Assembly: GCA_003140935.1 (NCBI GenBank) | Contig: PLLJ01000045.1 | Span: 2,767 to 66,766, forward strand | DNA: 64,000 bases | Direction of reading: 5' to 3' | Origin: Candidatus Omnitrophota bacterium | GTDB taxonomy: Bacteria > Omnitrophota > Omnitrophia > Omnitrophales > Aquincolibacteriaceae | Shown: in pieces, positions 11,508-39,830 of the stretch | Position numbering within the stretch: position 1 is the stretch's first letter | Layout of the letters: each line of letters begins with the position of its first letter | Position numbers and translations under genes: made by a program | Notes under the pieces: model-generated | The model's input: only the letters and a program-made list of their open reading frames with translations | What the model was told of the DNA's origin: nothing | Database searches by the model: none

Positions 11508-11751
11508 AAGGCTTGCCAGTCTTTTGGTTACAAGCTGGTGTATTGTATCAAAAATCCTGGGAACGGGGAAAGGGAAACGCTTTTTTACCATGGGGACTCG
11601 GGACTTGTGCCTCGGGACTCGTTTAAAGAAGAATTTTCGAGTCCCTAGTCCCGTACTGAATGACGGGTAGAAATTAATGGTTATTCAGTACTGCACTGGC
11701 TTCCAATAAAAATTTCAATGAGAGCCAGGCGAACTACGAGTCTCGCGAAAA

Positions 11752-14581: not shown

Positions 14582-14735
14582 GGGTTGATTGGGACTGTCC
14601 TAATACTTATCAATTTCCGCACAACGGAAATTGGGGCTGTCCAAGTCAGCCATCCTGGAAATAAAACGAAAGACTTGGACTGCACTGAACTTCCATTAGG
14701 TTTTATGGGTTGTTCAGTGCGGCCGGTTTATCGGA
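14582..14735 (+). repeat. R1 structured intergenic repeat (three consecutive hairpins); near-identical copy at 39681..39830
   Basis: caatttccgcacaacggaaattg; gtccaagtcagcc...(A-rich loop)...gacttggac; gcactgaac...gttcagtgc. About 90% identical to the copy at 39.7 kb. Confidence 0.8.
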
Positions 14736-19879: not shown

Positions 19880-19891
19880 CAGGTTGCGTTT

Positions 19892-20539
19892 TTATTGTGT
19901 CCCGTGTCCCCGGGATTCTTCCCACCGTTCCATGATCCCGAGCACTTCCCGGTCCGGCACGTCGTACCAATGCCGGTAGACCTGCGCCACAGCGTGAAAA
20001 ACGACCGGCATCTCGAGCACCACGAGTTCGTCAACGGTCCGGGCGATCTCCGTCGCGACGTCTTCACCGGCCACGGGCGCCGCGACCACGATCTTTTTCG
20101 CGCGCTTGTTCCTGCAGAGCAGGATCGCGGCCCGCATCGTCGCCCCCATCGCGATCCCGTCGTCCACCAAGATCACGGTCCTGCCTTTAAGGTCCGGCAA
20201 CGGCTTTCCTTTGCGGAGCGTCTTGACCCTCCGGAGGATCTCGAGCTTCTGCGCTTCCTGGATCGCCTTCGTTTCTTTTTCCGGGACCCGTGAGGCGACG
20301 CGCTCGATCAAAAAAGTACTGCCGTCCTCGGCGATGGCGCCAAACCCCGACTCAGGGTCGTCGGGAAAAGGCAATTTCCGCGAGACCACCATGGAAAAAC
20401 GGGCGCCGAGAGACCGGGCGACGTAATACCCAACCTCCACCCCGCCTCGCGGAATTCCCAGGACCGTCACGCCCTTGTCTTTATATTTCTCAAGCGCCAG
20501 GGCCAGTTGCTCCCCGGCGTCCTTCCTGTCCTCGAACAT
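19892..20539 (-). CDS. Predicted phosphoribosyltransferase (PRT type I fold)
   Basis: ORF track 19892..20707. Likely start MFEDRKDAGEQLALAL at 20539. VILVDDGIAMGATMRAA PRPP-binding motif. Confidence 0.7.
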   Translation of the reverse strand: MFEDRKDAGEQLALALEKYKDKGVTVLGIPRGGVEVGYYVARSLGARFSMVVSRKLPFPDDPESGFGAIAEDGSTFLIERVASRVPEKETKAIQEAQKLEILRRVKTLRKGKPLPDLKGRTVILVDDGIAMGATMRAAILLCRNKRAKKIVVAAPVAGEDVATEIARTVDELVVLEMPVVFHAVAQVYRHWYDVPDREVLGIMERWEESRGHGTQ

Positions 20540-24700: not shown

Positions 24701-24916
24701 TTATGCCCGCTGCGGGTTCATCAACTTAAACCAGGGACATCGCTTGACGCAAAATAGCAAACCCCTGCCCTTCGCTTTGGAACAACCCGCTTTGTCCAGA
24801 GAAGACGCGACTTCCCAGCATTTCCTGCCCGTTGACGGAAAGGCGGCGCATTGGATCTTGGTGGCTCTCGGGCAATCCCAGAATTCCCAGCAGTTCTGCG
24901 GTCTCGGATCCGTCAT
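24701..24916 (-). CDS. Small cysteine-rich protein (71 aa) with two CWE motifs, resembling a two-CW-type domain
   Basis: MTDPRPQNCWEFWDCP...KCWEVAS...GC...FCVKRC: 8 Cys. GGGGAAAAAGG RBS-like stretch about 8 nt upstream of the ATG. Confidence 0.45.
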   Translation of the reverse strand: MTDPRPQNCWEFWDCPRATKIQCAAFPSTGRKCWEVASSLDKAGCSKAKGRGLLFCVKRCPWFKLMNPQRA

Positions 24917-25199
24917 AGACCTTTTTCCCCTTTCTGCTTTTTGTCGAACGGTCCCATTTTCTCTTTCTTATTTTGACCGCCTTCGCGGAACCCCTTTATC
25001 AAATAGTAACACTATTTTACGAAGATAGGACGAAGAACAAAGCGTTTTGAGGATGAGTCGAACGGTGCTGTCCAACTTTGGGCTCTATATCCTATCCGCC
25101 AAATTTCGCGGACGGATCCGTCCACGCCGTGTGGCGGATAGGGTATAGGGTTTGTCACTCATTCCGGGGTATTGCGCTCGCTTTACGGAATCCCCTCTA

Positions 25200-25300: not shown

Positions 25301-25375
25301 AACATAACCCCGAGTCCCGAATCCCGAGTCCCTGTATTATTGTGTCTCGCGTCCCGAGTTGCGAGTCCCCCGCTT

Positions 25376-26080
25376 TTATTGCTCCGCTTTCATGGGAACA
25401 AAAATGACGGGGAGCAGGGACTCCCTCTCAAAACCCGTATCCGTTCGTGTAATGCGGACGAGCTCCTGGGAAGAACCTCCCACGGGAATCACCATCCGCC
25501 CTCCGACCTTCAACTGCTCCAGCAATGCTTCCGGGACTTCGGTGGGCGCCGCCGTGACCAGGATCACATCGAACGGCGCATGTTGGGGCCATCCCTGATT
25601 GCCGTCCCCCCATTTGACTTCTACGTTGTTGTATCCGAGCTGTGTCAATTTCTGGGTCGCCGCATCCGCAAGTTCTCTTATGATTTCCACACTATAAACT
25701 TCTTTGGCGAGCTCGCCAAGGATGGCGGCTTGATATCCCGAGCCTGTTCCGATCTCAAGCACGCGGTCCTCCGGTCCGACAAGGCCTTTCTCCGTCATGT
25801 AGGCCACGATATAGGGTTGCGAGATCGTCTGCCCGCGGCCGATCGGGAGAGGCTGGTCCGCGTAAGCCGCGCCGCGAAGAAGCGCCGGAACGAACAAATG
25901 GCGCGGGACCTTCCGCATGGCGTTGAGCGTTCTTTGATCGCGGACGCCGCGCAGGACGATCTGTTCGTCCACCATCTTTTGCCGCGCCGAGACGAACGCG
26001 TTCTCTTCCGCTAAGACCGGTCGCGGCAAAAGCGATGCTGTAAAACAAGCCAGATAAAAGATCTTTGCTGTGCTTATCAT
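25376..26080 (-). CDS. pcm: Protein-L-isoaspartate O-methyltransferase with signal peptide
   Basis: TISQPYIVAYM, LEIGTGSGYQAA SAM-binding motif. Confidence 0.85.
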   Translation of the reverse strand: MISTAKIFYLACFTASLLPRPVLAEENAFVSARQKMVDEQIVLRGVRDQRTLNAMRKVPRHLFVPALLRGAAYADQPLPIGRGQTISQPYIVAYMTEKGLVGPEDRVLEIGTGSGYQAAILGELAKEVYSVEIIRELADAATQKLTQLGYNNVEVKWGDGNQGWPQHAPFDVILVTAAPTEVPEALLEQLKVGGRMVIPVGGSSQELVRITRTDTGFERESLLPVIFVPMKAEQ

Positions 26081-26169
26081 GACCCCCGCTCCCCCGCGTC
26101 TTTTTCAGGGAAAAATGCGCCGCGTAAAAAAGGGTATCGCCGTACGCGGCGTCCACGCTGTTTGTTTTG

Positions 26170-27036
26170 TTATAGGTTAATGTTCAGAAAGGCCCGCACG
26201 CCGAGCCCGATCAGAAAAGAAAGGCCGGCGACGCCGAGCGAGATCGAGACCATCTCGACGAACCGTTTGCGGAAATCCAGGCCCTTGGCGACCGAGATGT
26301 AGAAGGTAAACGCAAAGATGATCACCACCGCGGTCACGAGCATCACGGCAAGGGAAACGAGGAGCTCTTTCGATAAAAGATAGGGCAGGACCAGCAGGGT
26401 CACGGTCAGGAGATAGGCGATGCCCGTATAGACCGAGGCCTTGACCGGGTCCTTGCCTTCGCTCTCCGAGCGCGTGGAAAGGAATTCCGAAGCCGCCATG
26501 GATAAAGAAGCGGCGATCCCCGTAATGGCGCCGGCCGTCGCCACGAGCTTGGCGCTCCCCAGCGCGAAGGTGAACCCCGCGAGCGCGCCGGTCAGTTCCA
26601 CCAGCGCGTCGTTCAGTCCCAGCACGATCGAACCCACGTACTTCAAACGCTCCTCGTCGATCATCTCCAGGAGCCGGTGTTCATGCCCCTCTTCGTCGGC
26701 GACGATCCCGGAAGCCTCCGCCACGCTGAGACTCATCAACGCGTAGGCCTCCTGGGCGTCCGCCTCCCCGCCCTCCATGAGCTTGAGACCGAACGTGAGG
26801 CCGAGCACGCGCGCGATAAGGAAATATTTCCATACCGTGGCGCGGTCGGGCAAAAGGTCCCGGCCCGTGTGCTTCTTCCAGATCTCATAATGGCGGAGCT
26901 CGTCGGCGGCGATCTTTTCCAGGACCTCTTTATTTTTCGCGCTTTTTTCGATCGAGGCCAGCTTGAGATAGATGAAATGCTCCGTGATCTCGTTTTTCTG
27001 GAAAGCCAGAATTTTTTCCATGACCGTGTGACTCAT
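26170..27036 (-). CDS. VIT1/CCC1-family iron transporter with N-terminal ferritin/rubrerythrin-like domain
   Basis: N-terminal ELRHYEIW...EEGHEHRL metal-binding helices, followed by 5 TM helices typical of VIT1. Confidence 0.7.
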   Translation of the reverse strand: MSHTVMEKILAFQKNEITEHFIYLKLASIEKSAKNKEVLEKIAADELRHYEIWKKHTGRDLLPDRATVWKYFLIARVLGLTFGLKLMEGGEADAQEAYALMSLSVAEASGIVADEEGHEHRLLEMIDEERLKYVGSIVLGLNDALVELTGALAGFTFALGSAKLVATAGAITGIAASLSMAASEFLSTRSESEGKDPVKASVYTGIAYLLTVTLLVLPYLLSKELLVSLAVMLVTAVVIIFAFTFYISVAKGLDFRKRFVEMVSISLGVAGLSFLIGLGVRAFLNINL

Positions 27037-27143
27037 CGCGTTCTCCTGTTCCCGGACATCATCCCGCGTTCCTTTTTTGAAAAAATACGCCGCTTAAGCT
27101 GAAACCACGTTCCATTTTAGAGGAAGGATGGAATGAAGTCCTC

Positions 27144-28007
27144 TCAATTTTCACTTCTCAAATATCTCAGCCACTCACTTTCCAGATCTTCGACGCTGCT
27201 GATACGGGTTGAATAAGCAAAACTCAGGGCTTCTTCCAGACTCTTTCCATCGCGCAGTTGCCTGCAAAATTCGGTAAAACTGTCTGCGCCGTAATGGGCT
27301 ATTAAAAATCCCACTAAAGAAACCGCTTCTACGTAAAAGATGTCGACCACCTCTTTGCCGTTTAAGGACAGCAAGGTCCTTTTTCCGTCTTGATCGCGTA
27401 TGGAATGAATGGCCACTCTGTTATTGCCGCTGACTTTGCGGATATCCAGGTTCACCACATCGGCCACGGAAAAGAATCTGCCGTTCTTTAAAAGATACTG
27501 GCTGACAACCTTGACCCGTTCTCTTTTAAGCGGTTCCGCCCACTGGGCGACGCCTTCATCCAACCAAGTGGCCACTTCACCTTTAAAGCCCACGAAATCC
27601 CTGAAAATAAGATGCGCCATTTCGTGCGGCAGGAGCGTATCTAAAAACCCCTCCCCATGGGCATAGCTAATGATCCGCTTGTTCCTGTAATCAGCCATCC
27701 CCTCGGACCAGCCGGGCTGATTTGATACTTTCTGATACGTTTGACGATCAGGATAAATATAGATCTTGACCCGATGTTCCCAGGTCCAGAATGCTGAATA
27801 GCGGGGATATCCCAGATCCGAAGCGATCTGAACATAATAAGCCTCGGCCTTATTCAAAACCTCTTGGGCGAATTCTTTATCCTGGGTGAAATAGACCATG
27901 AAGTGTTCGCCTTCTGCTTCTTGCCAATCCTGGGCAAAACATGCCGTCACACCATTGAAAAAACAAAGAATGATAATTACGCCCCGGGTCAGAGATCGAG
28001 TCATCAT
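27144..28007 (-). CDS. Secreted zinc metallopeptidase-like protein (HExxH)
   Basis: ORF track 27144..28151. Likely start MMTRSLTRGVIIILCFF (signal) at 28007. LPHEMAHLIF motif. Confidence 0.6.
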   Translation of the reverse strand: MMTRSLTRGVIIILCFFNGVTACFAQDWQEAEGEHFMVYFTQDKEFAQEVLNKAEAYYVQIASDLGYPRYSAFWTWEHRVKIYIYPDRQTYQKVSNQPGWSEGMADYRNKRIISYAHGEGFLDTLLPHEMAHLIFRDFVGFKGEVATWLDEGVAQWAEPLKRERVKVVSQYLLKNGRFFSVADVVNLDIRKVSGNNRVAIHSIRDQDGKRTLLSLNGKEVVDIFYVEAVSLVGFLIAHYGADSFTEFCRQLRDGKSLEEALSFAYSTRISSVEDLESEWLRYLRSEN

Positions 28008-28246
28008 AACTTTTCTATCTGCGTGTTCCAAGCCCCTGAAACTATACGGGTCCCGCACTGAACAACCCATAAGACCTATTGGAAGTTTAGTGCGCCATGA
28101 TTCTCTTTTTTTAAAAAATAAACGGGTAATCATGACAGTCCAAGTCGCCATTCAAGAAAAAAATGAAGACTTGGGCGGCACTCGCTTTCGATAAAATATT
28201 TTAATGAGAGCCAGTGCCGAGTTACGAGTCCCGAGTCCCCGGAATT

Positions 28247-29383
28247 CTAAAACGTAAGATACGGCCCGGACTTTTTAAGGACCTTCGTCAGTCTGCCAAG
28301 ATCGCCGAGGGACCGGATCCGGGCACCTTCGCTGCGGAAAGCCATGACGCGATCGACCATCACCTGTCCCAAACCCGGGACGCGGAGCATGCGCTGCGGA
28401 TCATCATGATTCAGGTTCACCGGGAAAAACTCCGGATGCGCATGGGCCCACATTTCTTTCGGGTCGATCGTAAGAGAAAGGTTGCCGCCGGGGTCCAGAG
28501 GGATCTCATCCGCTTGAAATCCGTATTTCCGGATAAGCCAATCGGCCTGGTAAAGCCGGTGTTCGCGGACCAGAAGATCCCGGTTGGCGGCCCCCGAGCT
28601 CTCTCCCGGAAGTTCCGGCGCGCCCGCTCCTCTTTGATAAGCGCTGAAGTAGACGCGGGAAAGCCTCAATTGCTTATACAATTTCCAGGAATACCCCAGG
28701 ATCTCCTTGTCCGTTTCCGTAGAGGCCCCCACCACGAACTGGGTGGTCTGCTTGATCCCGGCATACTCCGCTCCTTTCCCGGTCAGTTTGCTGATCAACT
28801 GAATGGGCCGGATAATGTCCCGCAGATAGTTCTTGGTCGTGCTGAGATGTCTGAAATTCGCCTCACCCGCGGTTTCGATATTTAAAGACACGGCCGTCGC
28901 CAATGAAAGACTCTGGCGGATCGCGGTGTCAGACGCTCCGGGAATGACCTTCAGGTGAATGTAACCCCGGAACTGCGACTTGCGCAAATGGAGGGCCACA
29001 CGATTGATACGCTCCATTGTGGTATCCGGGTCCTTTGCGACCGCACTGCTCAAGAAAAGGCCGCTCACCTTCCGCGCGTGATAGTAGGAAAGAAAAGTCC
29101 GGGTCAATTCCTCGGGGCTTAAACTGCATCGCCGGGCGGCCGAACCCGTCCGGAGCGGACAGTATTTACAATTGTTCACGCATTCGTTGGAAAGAAGCGT
29201 CTTGAAGAGGAAGGTCCGCCCGCCATTCGGGAGAATGACCGGATAGATCCATTTGTTTTCCTGGGACCGGCGGCGGTGTTCCTCCGCTCCTGTCGCGCAG
29301 GCGCAAGCTAGGTCATATTGAGCGTCCCGCGCCAGAATGGCGAGCTTTTCTTCCGCATTGGGACTTCTTTGAATGCCGATCAT
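28247..29383 (-). CDS. Radical SAM protein of the putative DNA modification/repair family, with C-terminal helix-hairpin-helix
   Basis: ECVNNCKYC (CxxxCxxC); C-terminal LRVPGLGQVMVDRV HhH. Confidence 0.7.
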   Translation of the reverse strand: MIGIQRSPNAEEKLAILARDAQYDLACACATGAEEHRRRSQENKWIYPVILPNGGRTFLFKTLLSNECVNNCKYCPLRTGSAARRCSLSPEELTRTFLSYYHARKVSGLFLSSAVAKDPDTTMERINRVALHLRKSQFRGYIHLKVIPGASDTAIRQSLSLATAVSLNIETAGEANFRHLSTTKNYLRDIIRPIQLISKLTGKGAEYAGIKQTTQFVVGASTETDKEILGYSWKLYKQLRLSRVYFSAYQRGAGAPELPGESSGAANRDLLVREHRLYQADWLIRKYGFQADEIPLDPGGNLSLTIDPKEMWAHAHPEFFPVNLNHDDPQRMLRVPGLGQVMVDRVMAFRSEGARIRSLGDLGRLTKVLKKSGPYLTF

Positions 29384-29491
29384 AGGCCTTCCGTCGCTAT
29401 CCCCTTTTAATGTCCTACGAGTCCCTAGTCCCGTCTTTATTTATCCCGAGTCCCTGTATTATTGTGTCCCGTGTCCCAAGTGCAGCGTCAT

Positions 29492-30184
29492 TCACTGTGG
29501 GGGCGTGAATTGCGAAAGCTCATAGAGATTCAATTCTTTTTCCAATTCCGAAACTTCTTTAACCTTGCCTTCAAACCCGGCCTCACCGAAGAGCTCATGT
29601 TCCTTATCTTCAAATTGATCTCCCATGGCTTCATATTCTTTTTCAGAAATAAGCCCGCGTAAAGCAGGGAATAAAACCGTGTCTTCCCGCGCGGCGTGAG
29701 GACGGTACATTCTGATGAAGGCGCGCAAAAGACCGGCTAAAGCCTTGGGGTCCTCTTGGCCGCCGGGTCGTTGATCCTTCGAAAGCCGCAGAATGGACTG
29801 GGTAAGTTCACGGCCGGCCACGTGCTGCTGCCGCAAAGTCTTTGTCAGGTCCGTAAGCTTCCCCGCTTTCTCAAAGACCGGGAAGATGTGATCTTCTTCC
29901 AGTTTCTCATGATAGCCTTCGATGAATTCACGGATCATAGTGGCGGATCTGAACAGAACTTCGTACTGAGGGGTTTTATGGTTCTCTATATCTTTCAGCT
30001 CTTGATCATAGATCAAAAGGATCCTTCTCAGGACGCCGTGCTCACGCATAAGATCTTCAACGGGCGATATGGGAATGGCTGCTAATTTTGAGTCGCTCGA
30101 TTTTTCTTCCGCCGGCGTAATGCCTGGGAATGAAAAGACAACGAGTGCTAAAAAAAAGATCGTCACACAGATCGCTTTTTTCAT
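29492..30184 (-). CDS. Secreted hemerythrin-like (HHE cation-binding) domain protein
   Basis: ORF track 29492..30280 starts at a TTG. Likely start MKKAICVTIFFLALVVFSFPGITPA. H/E-rich helices EDHIF...HAARED. Confidence 0.6.
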   Translation of the reverse strand: MKKAICVTIFFLALVVFSFPGITPAEEKSSDSKLAAIPISPVEDLMREHGVLRRILLIYDQELKDIENHKTPQYEVLFRSATMIREFIEGYHEKLEEDHIFPVFEKAGKLTDLTKTLRQQHVAGRELTQSILRLSKDQRPGGQEDPKALAGLLRAFIRMYRPHAAREDTVLFPALRGLISEKEYEAMGDQFEDKEHELFGEAGFEGKVKEVSELEKELNLYELSQFTPPQ

Positions 30185-30702
30185 ACTGCGCCTCCATCTT
30201 TTGGAGCTAATTTTGCGTCTAGGGACCAAGCTCCGGCACCGGCGATGATCAAAAAAAGCAAGCCGAGCACCATCGAACAATCGGTGCGCGCCTCACTGGC
30301 CATAGCCCAGAAACCATAGCGTGGCGCTTGAGCGACATGAAACAACCAAAAATCATGACCCAGCAGAATAGGAATTTTGGTAGAAATGATCGCCACAGAG
30401 ATATTGATCAACAGAGGAATGGCAGCCAATCGCGTACATAGCCCCAAAAGAATAAGCGTGCCAAAAATAATTTCCACACCGCCGACAAAAGGGGCCATGA
30501 TTTCGGGATTTGGAATCCCGATCCTGATAAAACGGCCTACGCCAAGCAGATCAGAAAAGAGGAATTTTTGAATGCCTTCGGAAAGAAATATCCCGCCAAC
30601 CATAAGTCTTATAAAAATGGTCGCCTTAGGAGCTACGGTATGAAACAGGACGGTAGAGAGTAGGTTTAAAATCCTATGGATCATATTTTGTAGCGTATAC
30701 AT
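30181..30702 (-). CDS. DoxX-family membrane protein
   Basis: Four TM helices; ATGA overlap with the downstream gene. Confidence 0.6.
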   Translation of the reverse strand: MYTLQNMIHRILNLLSTVLFHTVAPKATIFIRLMVGGIFLSEGIQKFLFSDLLGVGRFIRIGIPNPEIMAPFVGGVEIIFGTLILLGLCTRLAAIPLLINISVAIISTKIPILLGHDFWLFHVAQAPRYGFWAMASEARTDCSMVLGLLFLIIAGAGAWSLDAKLAPKDGGAV

Positions 30703-31297
30703 TTTTTTTATCCGGTCAATCGGCTCATCTATCTTTTTTCTGACTTTTTTCCTCTCCTCAACCAGGACAATGCCATGATTGATTTAAAAATAAAAAAGGC
30801 GCTACCGCTGTTATGAAGTTATCGACAATAGTAACGCCTCTATTGATAAAAACTCCCCCGCCTGCGATTAAACCGAATGTCGCTTTTGAGGGTAAATGCG
30901 GCATCGCATCCAAGGAATGGCTATTTCTGACGCGGATCGGACAAGATTGTCAAAATCTTGCCGAAGCCGCCCTGGTTTTACATTATTCAAATCAATCGGA
31001 AAACTAGGGCTGCACTAATTTTCTTTTAAAAAAATTTATCGAAAATCAGTGCGTACCAAAGCATTGGGCTTTGATGCATTCAACCGGTCCCCGGGGTGCC
31101 AGCTTGTCCGCCTCTGGCGGAGTACTGTTCTATTCCGCTTCCGGTTGCCATATATCATATCCGCCAAATTTCACGGACGAATCCGTCCACGCTGTGTGGC
31201 GGATATGATATACGGTCTGTCACCGCCCCGCGTCTTTTGTCCTCGTGCCCCGAGCTACGAGTCCCGAGTCCCGTCTTCATTTGTCCCGATTCCCCGT

Positions 31298-31834
31298 TTA
31301 TATCTTTTTCGATTCCTGTTCCAGGCGCTTCATTTCTTCCAGGCTCGAGTTCTCTTCCCCGGCAATCTGTTGTCGGTTGTCCCCATCTTTATTCGAGTCC
31401 CGAGGAGCGAGTCCCGAGTCCCGCGGTGTTTCGTTCGAGTCCCGAGCTACGAGTCCCGAGTCCCGTGGTTTTTCGTCCGTCGTCTTGGCCTCAGGGGAAG
31501 AAAGTCCTTTTTTTGAGTCCTGTTCCAGGCGCTTCATTTCTTCCAGACTCGGGTTCTTTTCCCCGGTAGTCTGTGGTCGGTTGTCCCCATCTTTATTCGA
31601 GTCTCGAGCTACGAGTCCCGAGTCCCTGTCTTTATTCGAGTCCCGAGGAGCGAGTCCCGAGTCCCGCGGCGTTTCGTCAGCCGCAGCTTTATTCGCTCGC
31701 CGGGCCGCGATCGCCGTCCTCGCCGCCCGGATGCCAAAGATCGCGTGCGCCGGAGGCGCTCCGAGAAGAAACGTCCCCGTCACCAGTCCCGCCATCACGA
31801 TTTTAAAAGTTTTCGACATCTCCAACCTCCCCAT
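31298..31834 (-). CDS. Secreted tandem-repeat protein (RDSGLAPRDSNKDGDNR repeats), encoded by a ~230-bp x2 tandem DNA repeat built from the GAGTCCCGAGTCCC motif
   Basis: Signal peptide MSKTFKIVMAGLVTGTFLLGAPPAHA; two ~80-aa repeat units; the underlying DNA is a tandem duplication. Confidence 0.5.
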   Translation of the reverse strand: MGRLEMSKTFKIVMAGLVTGTFLLGAPPAHAIFGIRAARTAIAARRANKAAADETPRDSGLAPRDSNKDRDSGLVARDSNKDGDNRPQTTGEKNPSLEEMKRLEQDSKKGLSSPEAKTTDEKPRDSGLVARDSNETPRDSGLAPRDSNKDGDNRQQIAGEENSSLEEMKRLEQESKKI

Positions 31835-31929
31835 GCTGCGTTGTCCACTTAGGAATTTTATTCAACATGCCCTGAGATTAGAACGGCACTATTCTACGAA
31901 GGAACGGTGAAGAATAAAGTACCATTCCT

Positions 31930-32358: not shown

Positions 32359-32970
32359 TCATCTTTTTTTCAGAGTAGCTTTGTCTTTATAGCTTGTACA
32401 TCGCACATAAAAATCAAATTGAATTAAAAAAAGAAGTATTGCGAACATAATTGTTAGAAATAAATTTTTCGTTAAACTTAATAATCCTATCGCTAATAAA
32501 GTCCCATTTAAAAAAGCCATTAAAAATACGAGGATCGGGAAATGATGCAAAAAACCTTCAAAATGTTTTGGCTCCTCATCGGTTATCGGCAACTTCAAGT
32601 ATTTTGTCAGATCGTCTTCCAGACTATTATCTGTGAAATACTTGCGAGTAAGGTTTGCGCTTTTTGCATAAAAAATCATCCGCATCCTAAGATTCATTAT
32701 GATCGCAAGGAAAATAACTCCTATAACAACTAAAAAAAGAACTATATAGACAAATGGCACTGGCAGATTATACAAGTCCCAAGTGATGGAGTTTATTTCT
32801 CTTGTTAATGCTAAGAATAAAGAAAGCGGAATCGCAATAACACCAAAATAATATTTAAATAATTGATAAAGAATTGTATATAAATGCTCGTAAAGCTCAT
32901 GCAAAAGCTTGTGCTCCTGCATCATAAATTCAAATTCTTGCTGAGCAGATAGTTGAGGATGTTTTTCCAT
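32359..32970 (-). CDS. 4-TM membrane protein, last gene of the AT-rich island cassette
   Basis: AT-rich codon usage; four hydrophobic helices; no recognisable family. Confidence 0.6.
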   Translation of the reverse strand: MEKHPQLSAQQEFEFMMQEHKLLHELYEHLYTILYQLFKYYFGVIAIPLSLFLALTREINSITWDLYNLPVPFVYIVLFLVVIGVIFLAIIMNLRMRMIFYAKSANLTRKYFTDNSLEDDLTKYLKLPITDEEPKHFEGFLHHFPILVFLMAFLNGTLLAIGLLSLTKNLFLTIMFAILLFLIQFDFYVRCTSYKDKATLKKR

Positions 32971-32990
32971 TGCTATCTTTAATGGGGTCG

Positions 32991-34070
32991 TTATTTCCTT
33001 CCCAATCTTTCTAATTCCCGGTTGTATGATTCAAAGCCATGTCTTATGACTATGTTTTGCTCTCGTACTTTTCTTCGAAAAAGTTTAACTTGCCAATCCA
33101 TCCAATTCTGATGAATAAAATAATCCGCAGAAGTCTGCGCGACTCTTGGGTTATAGTTATCGAACGTTTGATTTAAAGGCCGATAACGGCAATCAGCGGT
33201 TTGAACTCCCCATTTTTTACATTCTTTAATTTTTTGCAACATTTCATAAAAATCATGTTCGAAGTTAGATATCATGAACACGTACATCTCTTTTGCTCTG
33301 TATCCGGCTTCGATCAGCATCTCGATTTGTTTTTTTATCATTTGGCGCTGGGAATATCCATGATCCCAAGCGATCCTCGGGTTAAGAAAATGTGCCTGCT
33401 TCAACAATTTCGCCAATTCTGGCGTCAAAAGCCTCCCGTCAATTCCGCACTGACTTTCAGAATAGACCGCTCGCCCATTGCACTTCGCATTCTTCAATTC
33501 ATCCAAAATGTCTTTTATATATGGATTAGCTAAAAGATTATTATCGTAAAAAATTACCCTATTGCTACAAATCTCATCTTTGATACTTTTTTTGGGAATA
33601 AATTCGGGCTCGATTTTCCAAGTTCCGCAGAATTTACATTTTCGCACACATCCTCTTGAAGAATGAACGATCTGATAATCGACATCAACTAAACTGTAAT
33701 CTGGCGCAGATGCTTCCGCCTTTGGATCCACGCCAACAAAAACTTTATCGCATTCAGATTGTTTACAGTGGTCTGGCATGAGTGATGCATAAATGCCACC
33801 GACAGTTATATGGGCCCTGGGATAATTCTTTTTGTAGAATTTCACACTATCCCACACGTATTTGGACCAATAGGTAAATAGAGAGGTAATCTTAATTTCA
33901 TCCGGACAAAACTCTCCAACCAGCTTGTCCCCTCGCACAAGTCGGACTTTATCACCATTTGCTTTGTGGTAACTGGCTAGCTTGAGTAAGCCAACAGGCA
34001 AAAAATCTCGGTGATTTTTGCTTTTTGCTGGAATCGGAAAACCTGGTTCCACTAATAATATTTTAGACAT
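32991..34070 (-). CDS. Radical SAM enzyme with N-terminal B12-binding-like (Rossmann) domain
   Basis: KILLVEPGFP...PVGLLKLASYH...HITVGGIYASLMPD (B12-binding-like); SSRGCVRKCKFCGTW (CxxxCxxC). 8-nt overlap with the upstream HD gene. Confidence 0.75.
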   Translation of the reverse strand: MSKILLVEPGFPIPAKSKNHRDFLPVGLLKLASYHKANGDKVRLVRGDKLVGEFCPDEIKITSLFTYWSKYVWDSVKFYKKNYPRAHITVGGIYASLMPDHCKQSECDKVFVGVDPKAEASAPDYSLVDVDYQIVHSSRGCVRKCKFCGTWKIEPEFIPKKSIKDEICSNRVIFYDNNLLANPYIKDILDELKNAKCNGRAVYSESQCGIDGRLLTPELAKLLKQAHFLNPRIAWDHGYSQRQMIKKQIEMLIEAGYRAKEMYVFMISNFEHDFYEMLQKIKECKKWGVQTADCRYRPLNQTFDNYNPRVAQTSADYFIHQNWMDWQVKLFRRKVREQNIVIRHGFESYNRELERLGRK

Positions 34071-35583
34071 TTTTATTTAACAAGGTTTCTGGTAATTTCA
34101 ATTTAATGCCATTAAATTTTATATTATTCATAACATCTTTGTACTCGGGGAGTTTTCGAGCTAATTGCTCAGGATTAGCCCATCGGACTTTAACTTCAGC
34201 GTAATTATCTTCAAAACGGAAACCATCAAAAATGGCAAATTCCGCCGTTTCTTCGAAAGAACCGTTTCTTTTCCAATCATGTATGCTATCTAAAAAAATT
34301 AATAATACGGCGAAAGGGAAACGAGAAATATTAATCGGGAAGACTTCATGCTTTCTGAGTTCTTTCCAGATTCTGCTGTCATGTAGCGCAATAGAAGTAA
34401 CCGCTGGTATAACATGGGTAACAATTAACGGCCTATTGGGACGGCTGGTCACGACTTTTGATTCGCGTAAAACTCTCACAAGAAATTGAAAACATCCTGT
34501 TACTCCATGCGATCTATGTTTTATCAAATGTTCTCGTAGTATGTCCTTGATACTAGAATCCTCATCTTCTGACATTTCGGGCGTCCAATTATTAAGGATA
34601 CGTTCGGAACAACAATGTCGAATGAAGGATTGTAATTGTATCGCAGCCTGCAAATAATCACTTTTATCAGCGATCTTTTCCAAACCAATTAGTTCTATAT
34701 CCTCATTGTACCCGTACATTTCGCCAATTAAGTTGCCTGCTTTTTGCGAAGGGTAACCAATATCATGGAATATAGAAGTAATTAACCAGATGTATTCGAT
34801 GGAAAAATCTTTTTCCCGAGGAAAAACATTTTTATAATATTTTTGAAATTCCGCATAGTATTTATCGATTATTACGCATCCCATTAACATAACTTGAAAA
34901 GAATGCAAATAATGCTCACGCGTGCCCTTCAATAAGGGCTCATAATATTTCAGCCTCAAGTAAGGTTCCGAAGAATAATGAAATCTTTTATTATCAAAGA
35001 TTTTCTTTATCGTCAAATCAACTAATTCGTATTCCTCCTCTGAGATATTTTTTGTTTTTCTTAATCGTGAATATTTCGATACAAAATCCTTTAGGATTTG
35101 GCGGTATGAAATATTGTCCAAATCGCCAACGTACGATAAAAGCTTATTTGGAACATGTCCATGCTCAGAAGCCGCCTTCTTTTTTATTAGTTGTTTATAT
35201 TTTTTTCCACTAATTGCTTTGGCTTTAATATCAAGAAGTACGGAAAGCGAAGAATTGCTTAACTGAATTAGCCCAAATCCATTATTGAAACATTCAGAAA
35301 ATATCTGATCATATTCATATTCCGGCGGAATATAATAATAAAATTCAAAATTTTTAATTTGTTTTTTTGCTTTGATGATTTCTTTAGCGCCATTCGCTGG
35401 AAAAGCATTGCTTGTATTTATATCAATTGAAATTAATTTGGACTTATAGCGGTAAAGAAGATCTGGGCTCCACGCAATACCTCTTAAAATCCGATCTCCA
35501 GCCTTTTGGGAAAGTCTTCGCCAGTTGTATTTTTTCACTAAAATTTTATTGAGTTTATCTAGAAAAATTTCTTTTTTTGACAT
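34063..35583 (-). CDS. HD-domain phosphohydrolase (506 aa) with dNTP-triphosphohydrolase-like motifs and an uncharacterised ~220-aa N-terminal region
   Basis: TREHYLHSFQV (compare dGTPase RLTHSLEV), SIFHDIGYP (HD), later HRSHGV and LDSIHDW. Confidence 0.7.
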   Translation of the reverse strand: MSKKEIFLDKLNKILVKKYNWRRLSQKAGDRILRGIAWSPDLLYRYKSKLISIDINTSNAFPANGAKEIIKAKKQIKNFEFYYYIPPEYEYDQIFSECFNNGFGLIQLSNSSLSVLLDIKAKAISGKKYKQLIKKKAASEHGHVPNKLLSYVGDLDNISYRQILKDFVSKYSRLRKTKNISEEEYELVDLTIKKIFDNKRFHYSSEPYLRLKYYEPLLKGTREHYLHSFQVMLMGCVIIDKYYAEFQKYYKNVFPREKDFSIEYIWLITSIFHDIGYPSQKAGNLIGEMYGYNEDIELIGLEKIADKSDYLQAAIQLQSFIRHCCSERILNNWTPEMSEDEDSSIKDILREHLIKHRSHGVTGCFQFLVRVLRESKVVTSRPNRPLIVTHVIPAVTSIALHDSRIWKELRKHEVFPINISRFPFAVLLIFLDSIHDWKRNGSFEETAEFAIFDGFRFEDNYAEVKVRWANPEQLARKLPEYKDVMNNIKFNGIKLKLPETLLNKNV

Positions 35584-35593
35584 ATATTTGGAA

Positions 35594-36592
35594 TTATTTG
35601 TTATTTATCATTTGGTCAATGGTGTCTCGAAGTTTTTTTAAAGAAACCAAGATTCCTTCCTTTCTTTTTTTATCAGTTTCCTTCTTTAAATCAAACTCAG
35701 ATAGCTGTGAATTTAATTTATTAATATTTTTAATTAATGAACGGCTTGTTGTTTTGCTGGTCAAGGTGGGTATTTGTACTTTTTTAGTTAAGTCGTTTTT
35801 CAAGTCTTCGATTGTATACTCGATGTTTTCAATAAATCTTTTTGCTGAAGCAGCAAAAATTTCGATTTTGTCCAACTTCTTGCAAGTCATGATGGCATCG
35901 GGTATCCAAAAGAATGCGCGAGTTGTCCCAAGAAGACCTTTTTCTGCTTTCGCTATAAGCTTCCCTCTAATTTCTTCCCTCGAGTGATCCTTAAAAGTTT
36001 GGGGTATGTTTTTTTCTAACTGTTCAACAAAATTTTGTTCTATCTGCACAAGGTAACTGTCATCCAGCTTATTCTCCATAACTTTTTCTTGCGTTTCTTT
36101 ATTAAACCTCAAAAGCCGCAATCTATCTTCGACCTTTTTTCCGTCCATTTTGGTTATCTTTGCTATTTCGCCAATTAGGTCTTGATCGGTTATCGATTTG
36201 TTTTTTCTTTTTATCAAATCAACATAGAATTTTAGCGCTTGGGCTTGCGCCATCGGCTCCCATTGTTCTCTCAGCATGTGAATTTGAAACATTCGTTTTA
36301 AGCCTTCCCCTTGGGCTTTGGCTTTTTTAATGGCCAACACATGGATGGGCACGCCTTCTCGTTTAACTTTTTGAGCAGCTTTAAGCCGTCTTTCGCCATC
36401 GAGCAAAATATATTTTTTGCCTTTTTTGCTATCGTTTTTAAAAACGATCAAAGGCACCATGACTCCAAATTGCCGAATGGATTCCTCTAGTGCTATGAAA
36501 TCCTTATCCTCATAATCCTGGCCTCTGGGATTATCTGGATTGAAAGCTATATCATTAGGAGAAACATACCTGATCTGCTCGTTTTTATTCAT
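35594..36592 (-). CDS. ParB/Sulfiredoxin-like N-terminal domain protein with Lys-rich helical C-terminal half
   Basis: VSPNDIAFNPDNPR...LEESIRQFGVMVPLIV...YILLDGERRLKAAQ (ParB box motifs); GGAGG RBS 6 nt upstream. Confidence 0.75.
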   Translation of the reverse strand: MNKNEQIRYVSPNDIAFNPDNPRGQDYEDKDFIALEESIRQFGVMVPLIVFKNDSKKGKKYILLDGERRLKAAQKVKREGVPIHVLAIKKAKAQGEGLKRMFQIHMLREQWEPMAQAQALKFYVDLIKRKNKSITDQDLIGEIAKITKMDGKKVEDRLRLLRFNKETQEKVMENKLDDSYLVQIEQNFVEQLEKNIPQTFKDHSREEIRGKLIAKAEKGLLGTTRAFFWIPDAIMTCKKLDKIEIFAASAKRFIENIEYTIEDLKNDLTKKVQIPTLTSKTTSRSLIKNINKLNSQLSEFDLKKETDKKRKEGILVSLKKLRDTIDQMINNK

Positions 36593-36761
36593 TCTATACC
36601 TCCATTTATTCCATAAATCATTTAAGATTTTTTATCTTTGTAGACGGAATCGATCCTACTTTCTTTCGTAAGTCAACGGAACACCGTCTGGGGAAAGACG
36701 TTAACTCCCCAATCTTATAGACGCACTCTTCGTTACAGGCAAGGGGAAAAAAGAAACCGCC

Positions 36762-37211
36762 TCAAAGATATAAGGCGCAGACGAAGGCGAGGGCGCCGGC
36801 GACGAGGTTGGCCAGGGTGCCGATGAGCCAGCGCTGGAGGTTATAGGCGGCGATCCGGTTCCTCGCGCTCCAATAGTACATCGGGTCGAGGCCTTCGATA
36901 TGCTCCGGCGTTTTGACGATCAACGCCCACGCCACCCATTTGGAAACGAGCTTGAACGCGAGCCACCCGACGATGATCCTGGCGGAATGCGTGGTGAACG
37001 CGATATAGAACAGGACCACTTCGAGAAGCCCGAGGACTTTGCCGAAGACCGGGCTTACCTGGCCGATGAGGAACGCCTTGGCCAGCTTCTCGTCCACGCA
37101 GTGGTAGTCTTCGCGCTTTCTCAGGAGCCTGAAGAGCCCGCGGATCGCGAACGACAGGAGCACGGCGACGGACAAACCCACCACAAAATGTTTCAGCGCC
37201 AGAAGCTGCAT
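36762..37211 (-). CDS. Membrane protein, unknown (GC-rich host-like composition resumes)
   Basis: Three or four TM helices. Confidence 0.5.
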   Translation of the reverse strand: MQLLALKHFVVGLSVAVLLSFAIRGLFRLLRKREDYHCVDEKLAKAFLIGQVSPVFGKVLGLLEVVLFYIAFTTHSARIIVGWLAFKLVSKWVAWALIVKTPEHIEGLDPMYYWSARNRIAAYNLQRWLIGTLANLVAGALAFVCALYL

Positions 37212-37267
37212 GTGAATCCCCCCTTTTCTTTAAAAAGTTTTTCCGTTTTGGACTAGTACTGTTCTCC

Positions 37268-37412
37268 ATTTGATTTTCCGCCACAATTCTTCGGACGGAT
37301 CCGTCCTTTGGCGGATAGGGGTTAACAGCACTTGTTCTCAAAAAAAACTTAAAGGTTAACAAGTGCTGTCCAAGTCGCCCTTAATAAAATAAAAACGAAG
37401 ACTTGGGCCGTA
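37268..37412. repeat. Composite of an R2 palindromic element (ccgccacaattcttcggacggatccgtcctttggcgg) plus an R1-type H1 hairpin (gtccaagtcgcc...gacttgggc)
   Basis: Inverse-orientation match to 52722..52830. Confidence 0.7.
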
Positions 37413-37452
37413 CTGTGTACCGCATACCCTTAATTTCAAATGTGATGCGGTG

Positions 37453-37926
37453 CTAGAGACCTTGCTGCACGGGCGAGCTTGAGCCTCCGCTGCCCAGCAT
37501 AAAAGTATACTCCGTCGGTGACTCTGCGGAGACATGGACCGGCGTCTCTTTCGAAGCATAGCCCGTAGCACTCAGCGTAAGCAGGACCTGGAAACCGGAC
37601 TGCGGGAAAGGGCTTTTTCCGTCGAACGGGACCTGGCTCATTTCGCCGTCCTTGGTCATTCCGCTGAGCGTGAACCCCATGAAATCTTTCACGGGAAAGA
37701 ACGCGATCCCTTCCCGGTTAACCGCCGCCGTTCTCGTCACGTTAGAGGCCGCTAGCGTATCTCTCATTTCGATCTGTCCCGCGGAAGGCACGACGTTCCC
37801 CGACTCTTCACGCACGATGACCTTGAGCGAGGGCGCTGCCTCCTCAGCCTTCAAAGGCAGGGTCACGCCCCAAAAAACCAGGATCGCCAGTATCCATCCC
37901 GTTCTTAAGGTCCTCAGGTTTCTCAT
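37453..37926 (-). CDS. Secreted protein, unknown
   Basis: ORF track to 38037. Likely start MRNLRTLRTGWILAILVFWGVTLPLKA at 37926. Confidence 0.5.
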   Translation of the reverse strand: MRNLRTLRTGWILAILVFWGVTLPLKAEEAAPSLKVIVREESGNVVPSAGQIEMRDTLAASNVTRTAAVNREGIAFFPVKDFMGFTLSGMTKDGEMSQVPFDGKSPFPQSGFQVLLTLSATGYASKETPVHVSAESPTEYTFMLGSGGSSSPVQQGL

Positions 37927-37989
37927 CCTTTTTTTCTTTTCGTTTAAAAAAAACAGGGGACGGTCCATCGCGTGACGTCCGCCTCTAAG

Positions 37990-38027
37990 ACAAAAAAAGC
38001 GGTTCCCCTTTAAAAGGAAACCGCCGC
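37990..38027 (-). terminator. Rho-independent terminator candidate downstream of the SNase-fusion gene
   Basis: Minus strand reads ggcggtttcctttt-aaa-ggggaaccgc followed by a run of 7 T. Confidence 0.45.
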
Positions 38028-38207
38028 GAAAATGCAAAATACCAGACGTTGTAGCCTTTAAAGGTGCTGGATATCGGGTATTATATACCTCGATTCTTCA
38101 TGAACCCTAGCAAGTAATTCTGATCGAGAGTTGCCCGCCGTTGGCAGGTCCTGGCCGGAAAAAAACAGACGGCATTCAAGTGCGGCTTCATTTCCTTTCG
38201 CGCGCAG

Positions 38208-39560
38208 TCACCTTTGCATACGAACAGCGTGCCCTTTTTCCAGGAGTTCCTGGTTCACGTAAGTCCCGCCGGCCCAAATGTCGACCAGGTACCTGTCGTA
38301 TTTGTCGGACTTGACGGTCTTGATGAGGATTTGCGCGCTGATTTTTCCATCCGCCATTTTCAACATCTTCTCCATGGCTTCTTTCGCTTCTTTTCCTTCC
38401 TTGCTCACGAGCTCGGGGGCGTCGAGACCGCGCAGGCGCAGGGTCTGCACGCTGCGCACGCCGAAGCCCAGATCGACCACCGCTTCGATCGTGTCGCCGT
38501 CGAGAATGCGGAACACCCAGGCGCGGTAAGTAAAAAGGTCGGCGGAGGTCCGTTTCGAGAGTTTGATCAGATCCGAGGGCGCGGAACCCGCTCCCGGGAA
38601 CGCGGGCATCACTTCGATGATCGCCCCTTCCTTGAAACGGAGGTCCCGGGACGTCCGGTAATAATTGGAGAACCCGAGGTCGATCACCGCCTTGCCGGTC
38701 TCGGGGCCCGCGGCGGCTTTGACGATCTTATAAGTCCCGGGCTTCCCCGGCTTGGCCGTGAGCGGGGTTTCTTTCACCGGCGCCGGCGCCTCATTTTTCG
38801 CGGCCTTGCGCTTTTTCACTTCTTCACGTACCTGGTCGCGGGTCCAGTTTTCTTTTTCAGCCATGGCCGCGACCTCGTCTTGCTCCTTGATATCATTCAG
38901 CGAAAGAAGCTCCTCATAATGGCTCCAGCTCAATTTTCCCGCGGGCGGGGAAATCGGGTAATCGCGGGCGAACTGAAGCATGGCGTACAGCTGGGTCTCG
39001 CTGATGGGCAAGTCTCCGGACAATCTTAAGATCACCTGCTTGCCGTAATCCGCGCGCTCCTTGTGCTGGAGCACGTGCTCGTCGATCAGTTTGCCGATCT
39101 CCCACGCCTCGCGGACTTTTTCCTGTTGGGCGGCCTGCTCCACACGGGCCTCGCTGGCCGCGTGGGCCTTGCGAATGGCGGCGACGAGCTGCTCGTAAGT
39201 TCCAACCTGGGTCGCGAGCACTGTAGACGATGGTCCCAAATCGTCACCGGGCCGTGCCTGTTCACGGCGCTCTTCAGCCGTCCCTGTGGGACTGGGAACA
39301 GGCGAGGTCTGGACCTGCGGCGCGGGCACTGTAGACGATTGTCCCAGATCGTCACTGTGCCGTGCCTGTTCACTGGGAACAGGTGCGGGGACCGGCGGGT
39401 TCATCGAAGGGACCTGCCCTGAGCTTGCCGAAGGGGCCTGCGAAGACGAGGACTTCAAGTCCCCGCGAGCGTGCTGAGGAACCGGGTCCTCAGCCTGCAA
39501 GGACGGGGATATCCAGAGGAGCGTGAGGAAAATACCGAGGGTGATCGTCGTCGTCTTCAT
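38208..39560 (-). CDS. Secreted multidomain protein: signal peptide, low-complexity duplicated segment, YhcG/DUF1016-N-like helical domain, and C-terminal staphylococcal-nuclease (SNase)-like domain
   Basis: MKTTTITLGIFLTLLWISPSLQA signal. Two copies of ARxxDDLGxSSTVxAxQV. SNase-like GDTIEAVVDLGFGV...LRGLDAPE...DKYDRYLVDIWAGG. Confidence 0.65.
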   Translation of the reverse strand: MKTTTITLGIFLTLLWISPSLQAEDPVPQHARGDLKSSSSQAPSASSGQVPSMNPPVPAPVPSEQARHSDDLGQSSTVPAPQVQTSPVPSPTGTAEERREQARPGDDLGPSSTVLATQVGTYEQLVAAIRKAHAASEARVEQAAQQEKVREAWEIGKLIDEHVLQHKERADYGKQVILRLSGDLPISETQLYAMLQFARDYPISPPAGKLSWSHYEELLSLNDIKEQDEVAAMAEKENWTRDQVREEVKKRKAAKNEAPAPVKETPLTAKPGKPGTYKIVKAAAGPETGKAVIDLGFSNYYRTSRDLRFKEGAIIEVMPAFPGAGSAPSDLIKLSKRTSADLFTYRAWVFRILDGDTIEAVVDLGFGVRSVQTLRLRGLDAPELVSKEGKEAKEAMEKMLKMADGKISAQILIKTVKSDKYDRYLVDIWAGGTYVNQELLEKGHAVRMQR

Positions 39561-39680
39561 TCCAAAGGTCCTTTCTTCTATGTAAGGCGTACGGTGTACG
39601 GAGTACGGCGTCCCGCCTGTCGTTCCTGTTCAAAAAAGGCGGGGCAGTGCGTCCCAACCTTCCCATCCATTTTAAAGGCC

Positions 39681-39830
39681 GGTTGAGACTGTCCTAATAC
39701 TTATCAATTTCCGCGCAACGGAAATTGGGGCTGCCCAAGTCAGCCATTCTGGAAATGAAACAAAAGACTTGGACTGCACTAAACTTCATTTAAGCTTTAT
39801 GGGTTGTTCAGTGCGTCCGTTTAAGGAGTT
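39681..39830 (+). repeat. R1 structured intergenic repeat, second full copy
   Basis: About 90% identity to 14582..14735 across all three hairpins; its 3' end supplies the stop codon region of the adjacent gene. Confidence 0.8.

Follow-up and report, generated by a model that had tools for sequence, protein, structure and literature searches.

A 64,000-nucleotide stretch of contig PLLJ01000045.1 (positions 2,767 to 66,766 of the forward strand; GenBank assembly GCA_003140935.1, Candidatus Omnitrophota bacterium; hereafter the window) contains short arrays of a G-rich heptamer, GGGAC(T/A)C, which lie close behind the stop codons of several genes and, in one case, inside the gene of a small secreted protein. 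Judged from the sequence, these arrays very probably belong to the G-rich heptameric repeat class, since they match it in unit type, strand, distance from the stop codon and occurrence of an inverted pair. The class has already been published, and the repeat of the Omnitrophota window is a lineage-specific dialect of the heptamers of Xanthomonas and Nostoc. We lean towards an explanation in which members of this class sit past stop codons, have been copied from site to site as modules, have entered one coding sequence as passengers and would act at the 3' ends of transcripts. The functional part of this explanation is put forward only tentatively.

The 14-mer GAGTCCCGAGTCCC matched 11 positions in the window with up to one mismatch, while 0.05 matches were expected from dinucleotide-preserving shuffles and none of 100 shuffles reached 11. 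The matches are located at 11593 (minus strand), 11639, 25312, 25319, 28226, 29419, 31259, 31409, 31451, 31613 and 31652. Six of them were counted as non-coding (11593(-), 11639, 25312/25319, 28226 and 29419), and that at 31259 lies in the 3' flank of an open reading frame (ORF). Five of the 11 were counted inside this single ORF (31298-31834, minus strand), and six separate loci are non-coding or at a gene end. The looser pair GGGANNNGGGA was found 26 times, as against 2.8 times in shuffles, with 22 occurrences on the minus strand. GGGACTCGGGACTC and its near variants occupy 11 places, and Tandem Repeats Finder gave period-7 rows, so that two or more tandem heptamers with a conserved G3 tract are present. 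Nearly all genes of the window lie on the minus strand, so that in the sense of the mRNA the motif is GGGACTC. The sense-strand unit is GGGAC(T/A)C, with the variants GTAGCTC and GCTCCTC, and nine aligned copies, taken from the window and from two close relatives, gave the consensus GGGACNC GGGACAC AATAAnnAC GGGACTC GGGACTC GTAnCTCGG. In the usual layout, two G3 tracts with a spacing of 7 nt form a pair, and AT-rich spacers of 12-13 nt separate one pair from the next.

Four co-oriented genes precede arrays with a gap of 2-14 nt from the stop codon, and a fifth array overlaps the stop codon. All five are on the minus strand. The module at 31240-31297, GGGGAATCGGGAC-AAATGAAGAC-GGGACTCGGGACTCGTAGCTCGGGG, lies 2 nt past the TAA of the small-protein gene. 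The module at 29415-29481, which lies 14 nt past the TGA of a hemerythrin-domain gene, fills the spacer between this gene and a radical-SAM gene with three G3-tract pairs separated by AT-rich spacers of 12-13 nt. GGGGACTCGGGACTCGTAACTCGG at 28213-28240 is found 6 nt past the TAG of the radical-SAM gene and is fused to a dispersed structured element of ~190 nt, and the module at 25305-25371 is found 4 nt past the TAA of a PCMT gene. GGGGACACGGGACACAATAAAAA at 19889-19911 is inside the end of a 271-aa phosphoribosyltransferase-like gene (family match), where the module GGGGACACGGGACACAATAA encodes the last codons (...RGHGTQ) and the TAA. The one convergent inverted pair of the window (11593-11652) is located between lysA-like and dapF-like genes, with its G-rich arms at 11593-11621 on the plus strand and 11639-11652 on the minus strand. 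Its hairpin is of modest stability (-25.1 kcal/mol, against -20.9 +/- 3.4 kcal/mol in shuffles). An additional G-tract run, GGGAACGGGGAAAGGGAAACG at 11559-11580 (plus), lies on the antisense strand between this pair and an internal ATG near 11513, at which dapF probably has its true start; in the longest ORF, the first residue of the Pfam domain is 36.

The first-pass annotation of this DNA had described dispersed intergenic copies of the motif, and the 11 matches, with the inverted pair among them, bear out this description. All five sites that it had listed are present; the sixth, at 19889-19911, had been missed. It had also linked the motif to a gtattattgtgtcccgtgtccc module at 28211-28240 and 29400-29480. 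This module is indeed present at 29456, and its other sites are 25334 and 19889, not 28211-28240.

The modules resemble each other beyond the heptamers. In the blastn self-comparison of the window, 25321-25359 and 29443-29481 are 92% identical, and 29415-29462 and 31255-31301 are 87.5% identical. Since non-heptamer spacer sequence is common to several sites, the modules are related copies and not independent products of slippage. The composite module ACAATAAWNACNGGGACTCGGG gave no match in the metagenome scan, the collection evidently lacking the source sample, and the 14-mer string was found in no paper in the literature search. Rfam 15 gave no match at the gathering score in the whole window, in which neither tRNA nor rRNA was found.

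The coding copy belongs to a gene at 31298-31819 (minus strand), which encodes a small secreted protein of 173 aa from MSKTFK, with GGAGG upstream. An alternative upstream ATG at 31834 gives the 178-aa signal-peptide ORF with repeats of the first-pass annotation. That ORF exists, and we judged the start at 31819 to be the better one. On the evidence of its codons and orthologues, the 173/178-aa ORF is a real gene. The exact 178-aa product was called on four contigs from different samples. Protein clusters of this kind numbered four among 5.8 billion proteins, three besides that of the window, each of 99 aa, and the metagenome scan added two more distant orthologues. The five orthologues all have a Sec-type signal peptide (MSKTFK...APPAHA), an N-terminal helix (IFGIRAAR...), with a basic segment IFGIRAARTAIAARRANK, and a C-terminal helix, with the C-terminal segment (G)E(K)N(P)SLEEMKRLEQESKK. 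Over the N-terminal 45 codons, the ratio of synonymous to non-synonymous differences is 13:9 for the orthologue in L198 and 11:6 for that in L199, both among the more distant ones. Differences that are mostly synonymous are the pattern of a translated gene under purifying selection. No family was found for the protein in Pfam or NCBIfam.

The 173-aa protein consists of a signal peptide (aa 1-26), a helix (29-41), a linker, a helix (92-104), a second linker and a last helix (155-172). Unit 1 (aa 45-104; 31508-31687, minus strand) is a linker of two heptamer modules encoding RDSGLAPRDSNKD and RDSGLVARDSNKDGDN, followed by the conserved GEKNPSLEEMKRLEQDSKK. Unit 2 (aa 105-173; 31301-31507, minus strand) is an in-frame tandem duplicate of the linker and the C-terminal helix, in which the order of the modules is swapped. 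The coding modules read RDSGL(A/V)(P/A)RDSN and are 39 and 42 nt long, so that the reading frame is kept. AlphaFold2 on the small alignment gave low overall confidence, with helices at residues 3-20, 29-41, 92-104 and 155-172 and both linkers as coil with a predicted local distance difference test score (pLDDT) near 50. Such a model would fit a linker that is disordered and accommodates insertions of low complexity. The segment DSNKDGDN was considered as an EF-hand-like calcium loop and rejected, because Pfam gave no match and position 12 does not fit.

Comparison of the linkers, which vary from 54 to 138 nt among the orthologues, indicates the direction in which the repeat travelled. The GGGACTC module is absent from the linkers of the orthologues in L006, L198 and L199. 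The linker of the orthologue P0002 has exactly one module (...SRDSGLAPRDSNK...), and the window has two in each of two units. The linker in L004 carries a different heptamer repeat, (GGATGGC)4.1, so that the linker is a place where heptamer repeats settle. In addition, L004 and L006 have GGGAC-type modules past the stop codons of other genes and no coding copy. From these sequences, we conclude that a non-coding repeat entered a disordered linker, and not the reverse. On the same comparison, the stepwise series of 0, 1 and then 2+2 modules reads as a clean case of a repeat turning into protein sequence.

The first-pass annotation had left two alternatives, a coding repeat that seeded intergenic fragments or an intergenic repeat adopted into a gene, and only the second has held up. 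If the RDSGL repeat protein were the source and the intergenic copies its decayed fragments, the densest cluster of perfect 14-mers would be expected where it is found, inside the ORF. However, four of the five orthologues have no module, the P0002 and window linkers form a series of one and then 2+2 modules, relatives devoid of coding copies still have intergenic modules, and the array occurs in unrelated phyla that do not have this protein. Because of the motif-free orthologue linkers, the intergenic modules of these relatives and the arrays in unrelated phyla, we reject a coding origin, which seems hardly credible.

The tandem duplication itself is evident from two segments, 31305-31422 and 31509-31626, which are 90% identical at a spacing of 204 nt. 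The unit is therefore 204 bp and not ~230 bp as first estimated, and the blastn self-match between 31227-31477 and 31420-31678 confirms the tandem array. Unit 2 begins with GLSSPEAKTTDEK, the counterpart of which is the ancestral ALSSSDDETK that comes after RANK in the orthologues. At the duplication junction (...TCAAAAAAAG|GACTTTCTTCC), AAAG precedes both ancestral end points. What was doubled, in frame, is therefore the stretch running from 'ALSS' to 'ESKK', and the event took place at a microhomology and not within the heptamers. Since the two module types are in opposite order in the two units, further rearrangement followed the duplication. Both alternatives had been called unusual at first sight, which overstates the matter. 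The repeat class is published, and 7-11% of the Xanthomonas copies overlap ORFs, the other 89-93% being intergenic (PMC4692102); the internal, in-frame duplicated use is nevertheless uncommon.

A natural variant is found in L197, an assembly from another sample, which is identical to the window over ~700 nt apart from a single patch. In this patch, 17 nt of coding copy 2 are replaced by 18 nt that match the non-coding copy past the stop codon; the module at 31240-31297 is thus a donor-like sequence. The patch shifts the frame and results in a 143-aa product that retains unit 1. Since the overlap for re-entry is only ~7 nt, an assembly-graph artefact is unlikely, as far as the sequence allows us to judge. 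Four assemblies have the same structure, and the sole variant is this patch and not a change in unit number, so that the locus does not behave as a phase-variable contingency locus. The relatedness of the copies and the L197 patch suggest that short-patch recombination or gene conversion may carry modules from one site to another.

Such exchange could also be the very role of the modules. They would then be short homologies for cassette exchange between strains, and for this reason would cluster in the variable 25-31 kb region. The cassette region is 25376-31298 in the window, 5563-6789 in L004 and 575-2635 in L006, relatives that are 92-95% identical in the shared genes. Between the small-protein and Peptidase_MA genes, the window has DoxX, hemerythrin and radical-SAM genes, L004 has Fic, and L006 has nitroreductase and a 122-aa ORF. 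A module follows each cassette gene in all three, the synteny breakpoint between the window and L004 upstream of Peptidase_MA is located exactly at a GGGAC heptamer, and the L197 patch is an exchange between copies. These observations, however, come from three relatives and one resolved breakpoint only. Modules also follow core genes (lysA/dapF and PCMT), no recombinase gene is nearby, and in Xanthomonas the repeats mark unusually stable regions, more so than controls (PMC4692102). We therefore consider recombination junctions a rather improbable explanation of the modules.

One genome per species was scanned for the pattern TACGAGTCCCGAGTCCC, which matched at least 115 stretches. (GGGACTC)n-GTA arrays are thus present at at least 115 loci in about ten phyla. 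The counts in this paragraph are those among the matches listed. Arrays of three or more units were found in Xanthomonadales/Lysobacterales, other Gammaproteobacteria, a metagenome-assembled genome (MAG) of Betaproteobacteria and Hyphomicrobiaceae, and also in Acidobacteriota, Omnitrophota, Bacteroidota, Anaerolinea, Sedimentisphaerales, Gemmatimonadales and others. Four units are preferred: the arrays have two units in 33 cases, three in 21, four in 53, five in 10 and six in 2. Of 119 sites, 52 have an inverted partner no more than 160 nt away. The upstream coding frame was called from the periodicity of guanine-cytosine content over codon positions, and a clear coding signal on the sense strand precedes the array at 50 sites. 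At 16 of these 50, the array-terminal TAA or TAG serves as the stop codon, and the array is translated; the stop codon precedes the array by up to 10 nt at 18 sites and by 11-20 nt at 6 more. Across phyla, array starts are tightly clustered 3-10 nt past stop codons.

Where the array is translated, unrelated proteins end in ...(R)DSGLGTRDS, the stop being supplied by CTCGTAA or CTCGTAG. Such tails are found in Xanthomonadales, Hyphomicrobiaceae and one Omnitrophota MAG, and the loci with an array-encoded tail are L083, L086, L091, L092, L098, L099, L106, L119, L134, L149, L151, L153, L154, L167, L171, L175 and L180. One orthologous gene end has the array in the same frame in five species, four of them with a perfect (GGGACTC)4, and the next 60-70 nt cannot be aligned. 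The arrays beside this unalignable spacer therefore persist, or are kept homogeneous, over long times. The variant unit 'GCNCCTC' is common to the window and the Omnitrophota MAGs L137, L151 and L160, which gives no more than a hint of affiliation. GTAGCTC recurs across several phyla, a recurrence that single mutations from GGGACTC would not explain. An exact identity of 35 nt, GGGACTCGGGACTCGTAGCTCGGGACTCGAACGA, was found between the coding copy (31431-31465) and L182 (460-494), a Vicinamibacterales MAG of Acidobacteriota. No nucleotide similarity between the window and the fetched genome loci extends beyond the repeat. Predicted viral contigs (L028 at 10369-10439; L047, L057 and L063) have long GGGACTC arrays (7 + 3 units) or octamer arrays of GGGGACTC.

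GTA is followed by A or G in 88% of the seed sites, in part because TA(A/G) serves as stop codon. GTA as a universal 3' boundary was rejected, since it is imposed by the search pattern: it ends 0 of 80 viral-contig arrays and 3 of 266 non-seed arrays. This bears on the possibility of a miniature mobile element, of the MITE (miniature inverted-repeat transposable element) type or like the repetitive extragenic palindromic elements (REPs) and their REPIN form, moved by a transposase encoded elsewhere. Such an element would account for composite modules of 40-50 nt that recur at several loci, and in Xanthomonadales some inverted pairs flank 60-70 nt. The 'CTCGTAG/CTCGTAA' end also recalls the GTAG head of REPs. 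The GTA end, however, is not general, and the modules are direct heptamer arrays and not palindromes; no self-folding imperfect palindrome of 20-40 nt of the REP type was found in them. The nine-copy alignment has ragged boundaries with neither terminal inverted repeats nor target-site duplications. No transposase was called within 10 kb, and no RAYT (REP-associated tyrosine transposase, a Y1 transposase) is among the genes called within that distance. A mobile element is thus very unlikely.

Another possibility is that the arrays are a neutral by-product of slippage in the least constrained DNA, that is, gene ends and disordered linkers, with no cis function and a position that reflects tolerance. 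Among tandem repeats of the window and of L004, a period of 7 is the most frequent, with units of unrelated sequence. NGTACGG is repeated four times at 39581-39608, just upstream of a gene start, and arrays of other unrelated units are found in L004 (5171-5237 and 5434-5462) and L006 (2280-2298, CGTGGCC). In L004, an inverted pair of CAACGCG/CGTTGTG precedes the small-protein gene, and GGATGGC is repeated four times inside the linker of that gene; one and the same protein linker has thus taken up different heptamers in two relatives. Among close relatives, the extent of the 3' flank of the small gene varies as well, and the over-representation of heptamers has been attributed to polymerase slippage (PMC4692102). 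A purely neutral origin is harder to reconcile with the tight clustering of array starts 3-10 nt past stop codons across phyla, the strong preference for four units, the strand specificity relative to the gene, the array conserved at orthologous sites in five species beside a fully diverged spacer, and the 83% positional conservation of repeats between two Xanthomonas species (PMC4692102). We consider this neutral reading unlikely, while giving it more weight than the other alternatives.

The explanation that we favour shares slippage with the neutral one. Since heptamers are the dominant tandem period in the lineage, with several unrelated units, the units may arise and be resized by replication slippage. 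The modules would then spread by short-patch exchange. In the transcript, pairs of G tracts would fold immediately behind the terminating ribosome, into a quadruplex whose central loop is long or, where inverted copies pair, into a hairpin. The folded modules could punctuate the 3' end of the upstream cistron or lend it stability, in the manner of REP elements, and the coding copies would be tolerated passengers and not the source of the family.

Several facts weigh against this explanation, in particular against its functional part. The only canonical quadruplex motif in the window is at 25309-25332 (four G3 tracts with 4-nt loops), and all other sites would need loops of 11-15 nt; the preference for four units, or for four G tracts with short loops, is not found in the window. 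With quadruplex energies included, ViennaRNA placed a quadruplex in the minimum-free-energy fold only at 25309-25332 and at 29.4 kb. The folding energies of the modules are no better than those of shuffles. The G tracts are conserved at 0.88-0.94, only a slight excess over the 0.78-0.86 at other positions. The arrays of the window have mostly two units, whereas elsewhere four are preferred. Of the six non-coding sites, five fall within 19.9-31.3 kb, four of them in the strain-variable region. Within this genome, the analysis covered the window of 64 kb, with flanks of up to 20 kb, and a genome-wide enrichment at stop codons is an extrapolation. In Xanthomonas, besides the stability of repeat-bearing regions, Rehm et al. 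could identify no function for the class (PMC4692102).

G-rich heptamers have been seen in cyanobacteria and characterised in Xanthomonas. New here are such a repeat in an uncultivated lineage of moderate GC content, and the exact GGGACTC array, its four-unit preference and its stop-codon coupling across many phyla. A bolder proposal would make (GGGACNC)n a functional, translation-coupled 3'-end signal in about ten phyla. If so, the signal must start a few nucleotides past the stop codon, with the terminating ribosome controlling its folding, and in this lineage the modules would be homology tracts for cassette swaps between strains and would feed RDSGL... linkers and tails into proteins. As a whole, we think this proposal improbable. 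If the stop-codon coupling is functional, it would point to a widespread layer of control, so far unrecognised, where bacterial cistrons end; otherwise, the locus is still a tidy case of simple repeats creating new coding sequence. The cross-phylum stop-codon coupling is the part most worth following.

Other repeats were found around the modules. A palindromic hairpin element at 31148-31215 adjoins the module of the small gene, and a second copy at 25085-25158 is 89% identical (inverted repeat; self-blast). The palindrome is 68-73 nt long and near-perfect, lacks a U tract and has an RNA folding energy of -45.9 kcal/mol (z = -7.2). In appearance it is closer to REPs than the heptamers are, and the small-protein gene may in fact be terminated by it. 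The dispersed ~190-nt element with three hairpins, at 28047-28239, lies upstream of different genes in different strains. Its other copies are partial ones at 14682-14722 and 39776-39815, those at 636-819 and 1617-1811 of L006 and that at 4659-4702 of L004; the invariant core is GCACTAAACTTCC..TTATGGGT.GTTCAGTGCG. No Rfam match was obtained for it at E <= 1 (27990-28260). The adjoining CTGGCTCTCATT element was considered as a promoter and rejected, because neither the sigma-54 nor the sigma-70 consensus fits, and promoter and terminator scans were at or below shuffle expectation. No integron attC site was seen in the cassette region, judged by eye for GTTRRRY-type cores with no formal test. 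Small repeats of several families abound in the genome. Additional intergenic ones, dispersed, 60-174 nt long and 81-90% identical, are 14555-14728/39649-39822, 37232-37332/52763-52858 (inverted), 51823-51887/59890-59954 and 20478-20540/25244-25306.

The neighbourhood varies in other respects as well. A second variable slot, from the VIT1 to the Rce1-like genes, holds PCMT in the window and PAP2 with a 533-aa ORF in L004. A 71-aa cysteine-rich ORF at 24701-24916 (minus strand; MTDPRPQNCWEFWDCP...CWEV...FCVKRCPWF) has 81% nucleotide identity to copies in L004 and L005, which lie elsewhere, upstream of the small-protein gene. The poorly annotated run at 32359-39560 (minus strand) encodes a 203-aa membrane protein, a radical-SAM-like protein, a 506-aa protein, a ParB_N protein and a 450-aa DUF1016/SNase nuclease. 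In PADLOC, the last of these has a match to the candidate defence family PDC-S02 (E = 6e-23). This run may be a defence or mobile island beside the variable region.

Among known systems, the REPs and bacterial interspersed mosaic elements of enterobacteria and the REPINs of Pseudomonas are abundant short extragenic elements, often located right after stop codons inside operons, and are credited with stabilising the mRNA upstream of them or with a part in termination. A REP is an imperfect palindrome associated with a RAYT transposase, whereas the window modules are direct heptamer arrays. The coding copy resembles contingency loci in that the unit of its in-gene tandem repeat is not a multiple of 3 and the natural variant L197 is frameshifted at the repeat. 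Unlike in contingency loci, however, the patch was copied from another module with no gain or loss of units, the coding modules are multiples of 3, and most window copies are outside genes, next to housekeeping genes.

TAACTGA direct repeats are known from Beggiatoaceae, cyanobacteria and Bacteroidetes, and a post-transcriptional role has been proposed for them (MacGregor 2015, PMC4679880). They are similar to the present arrays in their runs of 2-6 units, their scattered intergenic positions and their occurrence in unrelated phyla with no evident transfer mechanism. They differ in that they lie just upstream of start codons, are AT-rich and are unable to form quadruplexes.

The heptamers of heterocystous cyanobacteria are named STRR (short tandemly repeated repetitive) sequences, and the reference for them is reportedly Mazel 1990. 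The GGGGA(C/T)T repeats of Nostoc PCC 7120 are tandem, G-rich, dispersed and mostly intergenic near ORF ends, like those of the window, and GGGGACT differs from GGGACTC by a shift plus one base. The unit and the phylum are nevertheless different, and the cyanobacterial arrays are longer. The GGGGA(C/T)T heptamers in Nostoc prefer the non-coding strand (PMC4692102).

The closest counterpart is the class described by Rehm et al. 2015 (PMC4692102), the G-rich heptamers GGGAATC/(GGGANTN)n, with 186 and 183 copies in two Xanthomonas genomes. These lie at a mean of 28 nt from the ORF on their 5' side, form convergent inverted pairs in 70-75 cases, clearly prefer four units, are transcribed and formed quadruplexes in vitro (PMC4692102). 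The window repeats share with this X. campestris/X. axonopodis class the conserved GGG tract and the conserved pyrimidine-rich end, the intergenic location on the coding strand 0-50 bp past the stop codon or overlapping it, the convergent inverted pairs, the variation of unit number between relatives and, as far as the genes called within 10 kb of the window go, the lack of an associated transposase. They differ from it in the unit, GGGAC(T/A)C, and in their two-unit pairs with AT-rich spacers in place of perfect four-unit runs. Further differences are that composite modules have been copied between sites in the window, that one set is internal to a coding sequence and that the repeats are clustered in a strain-variable region.

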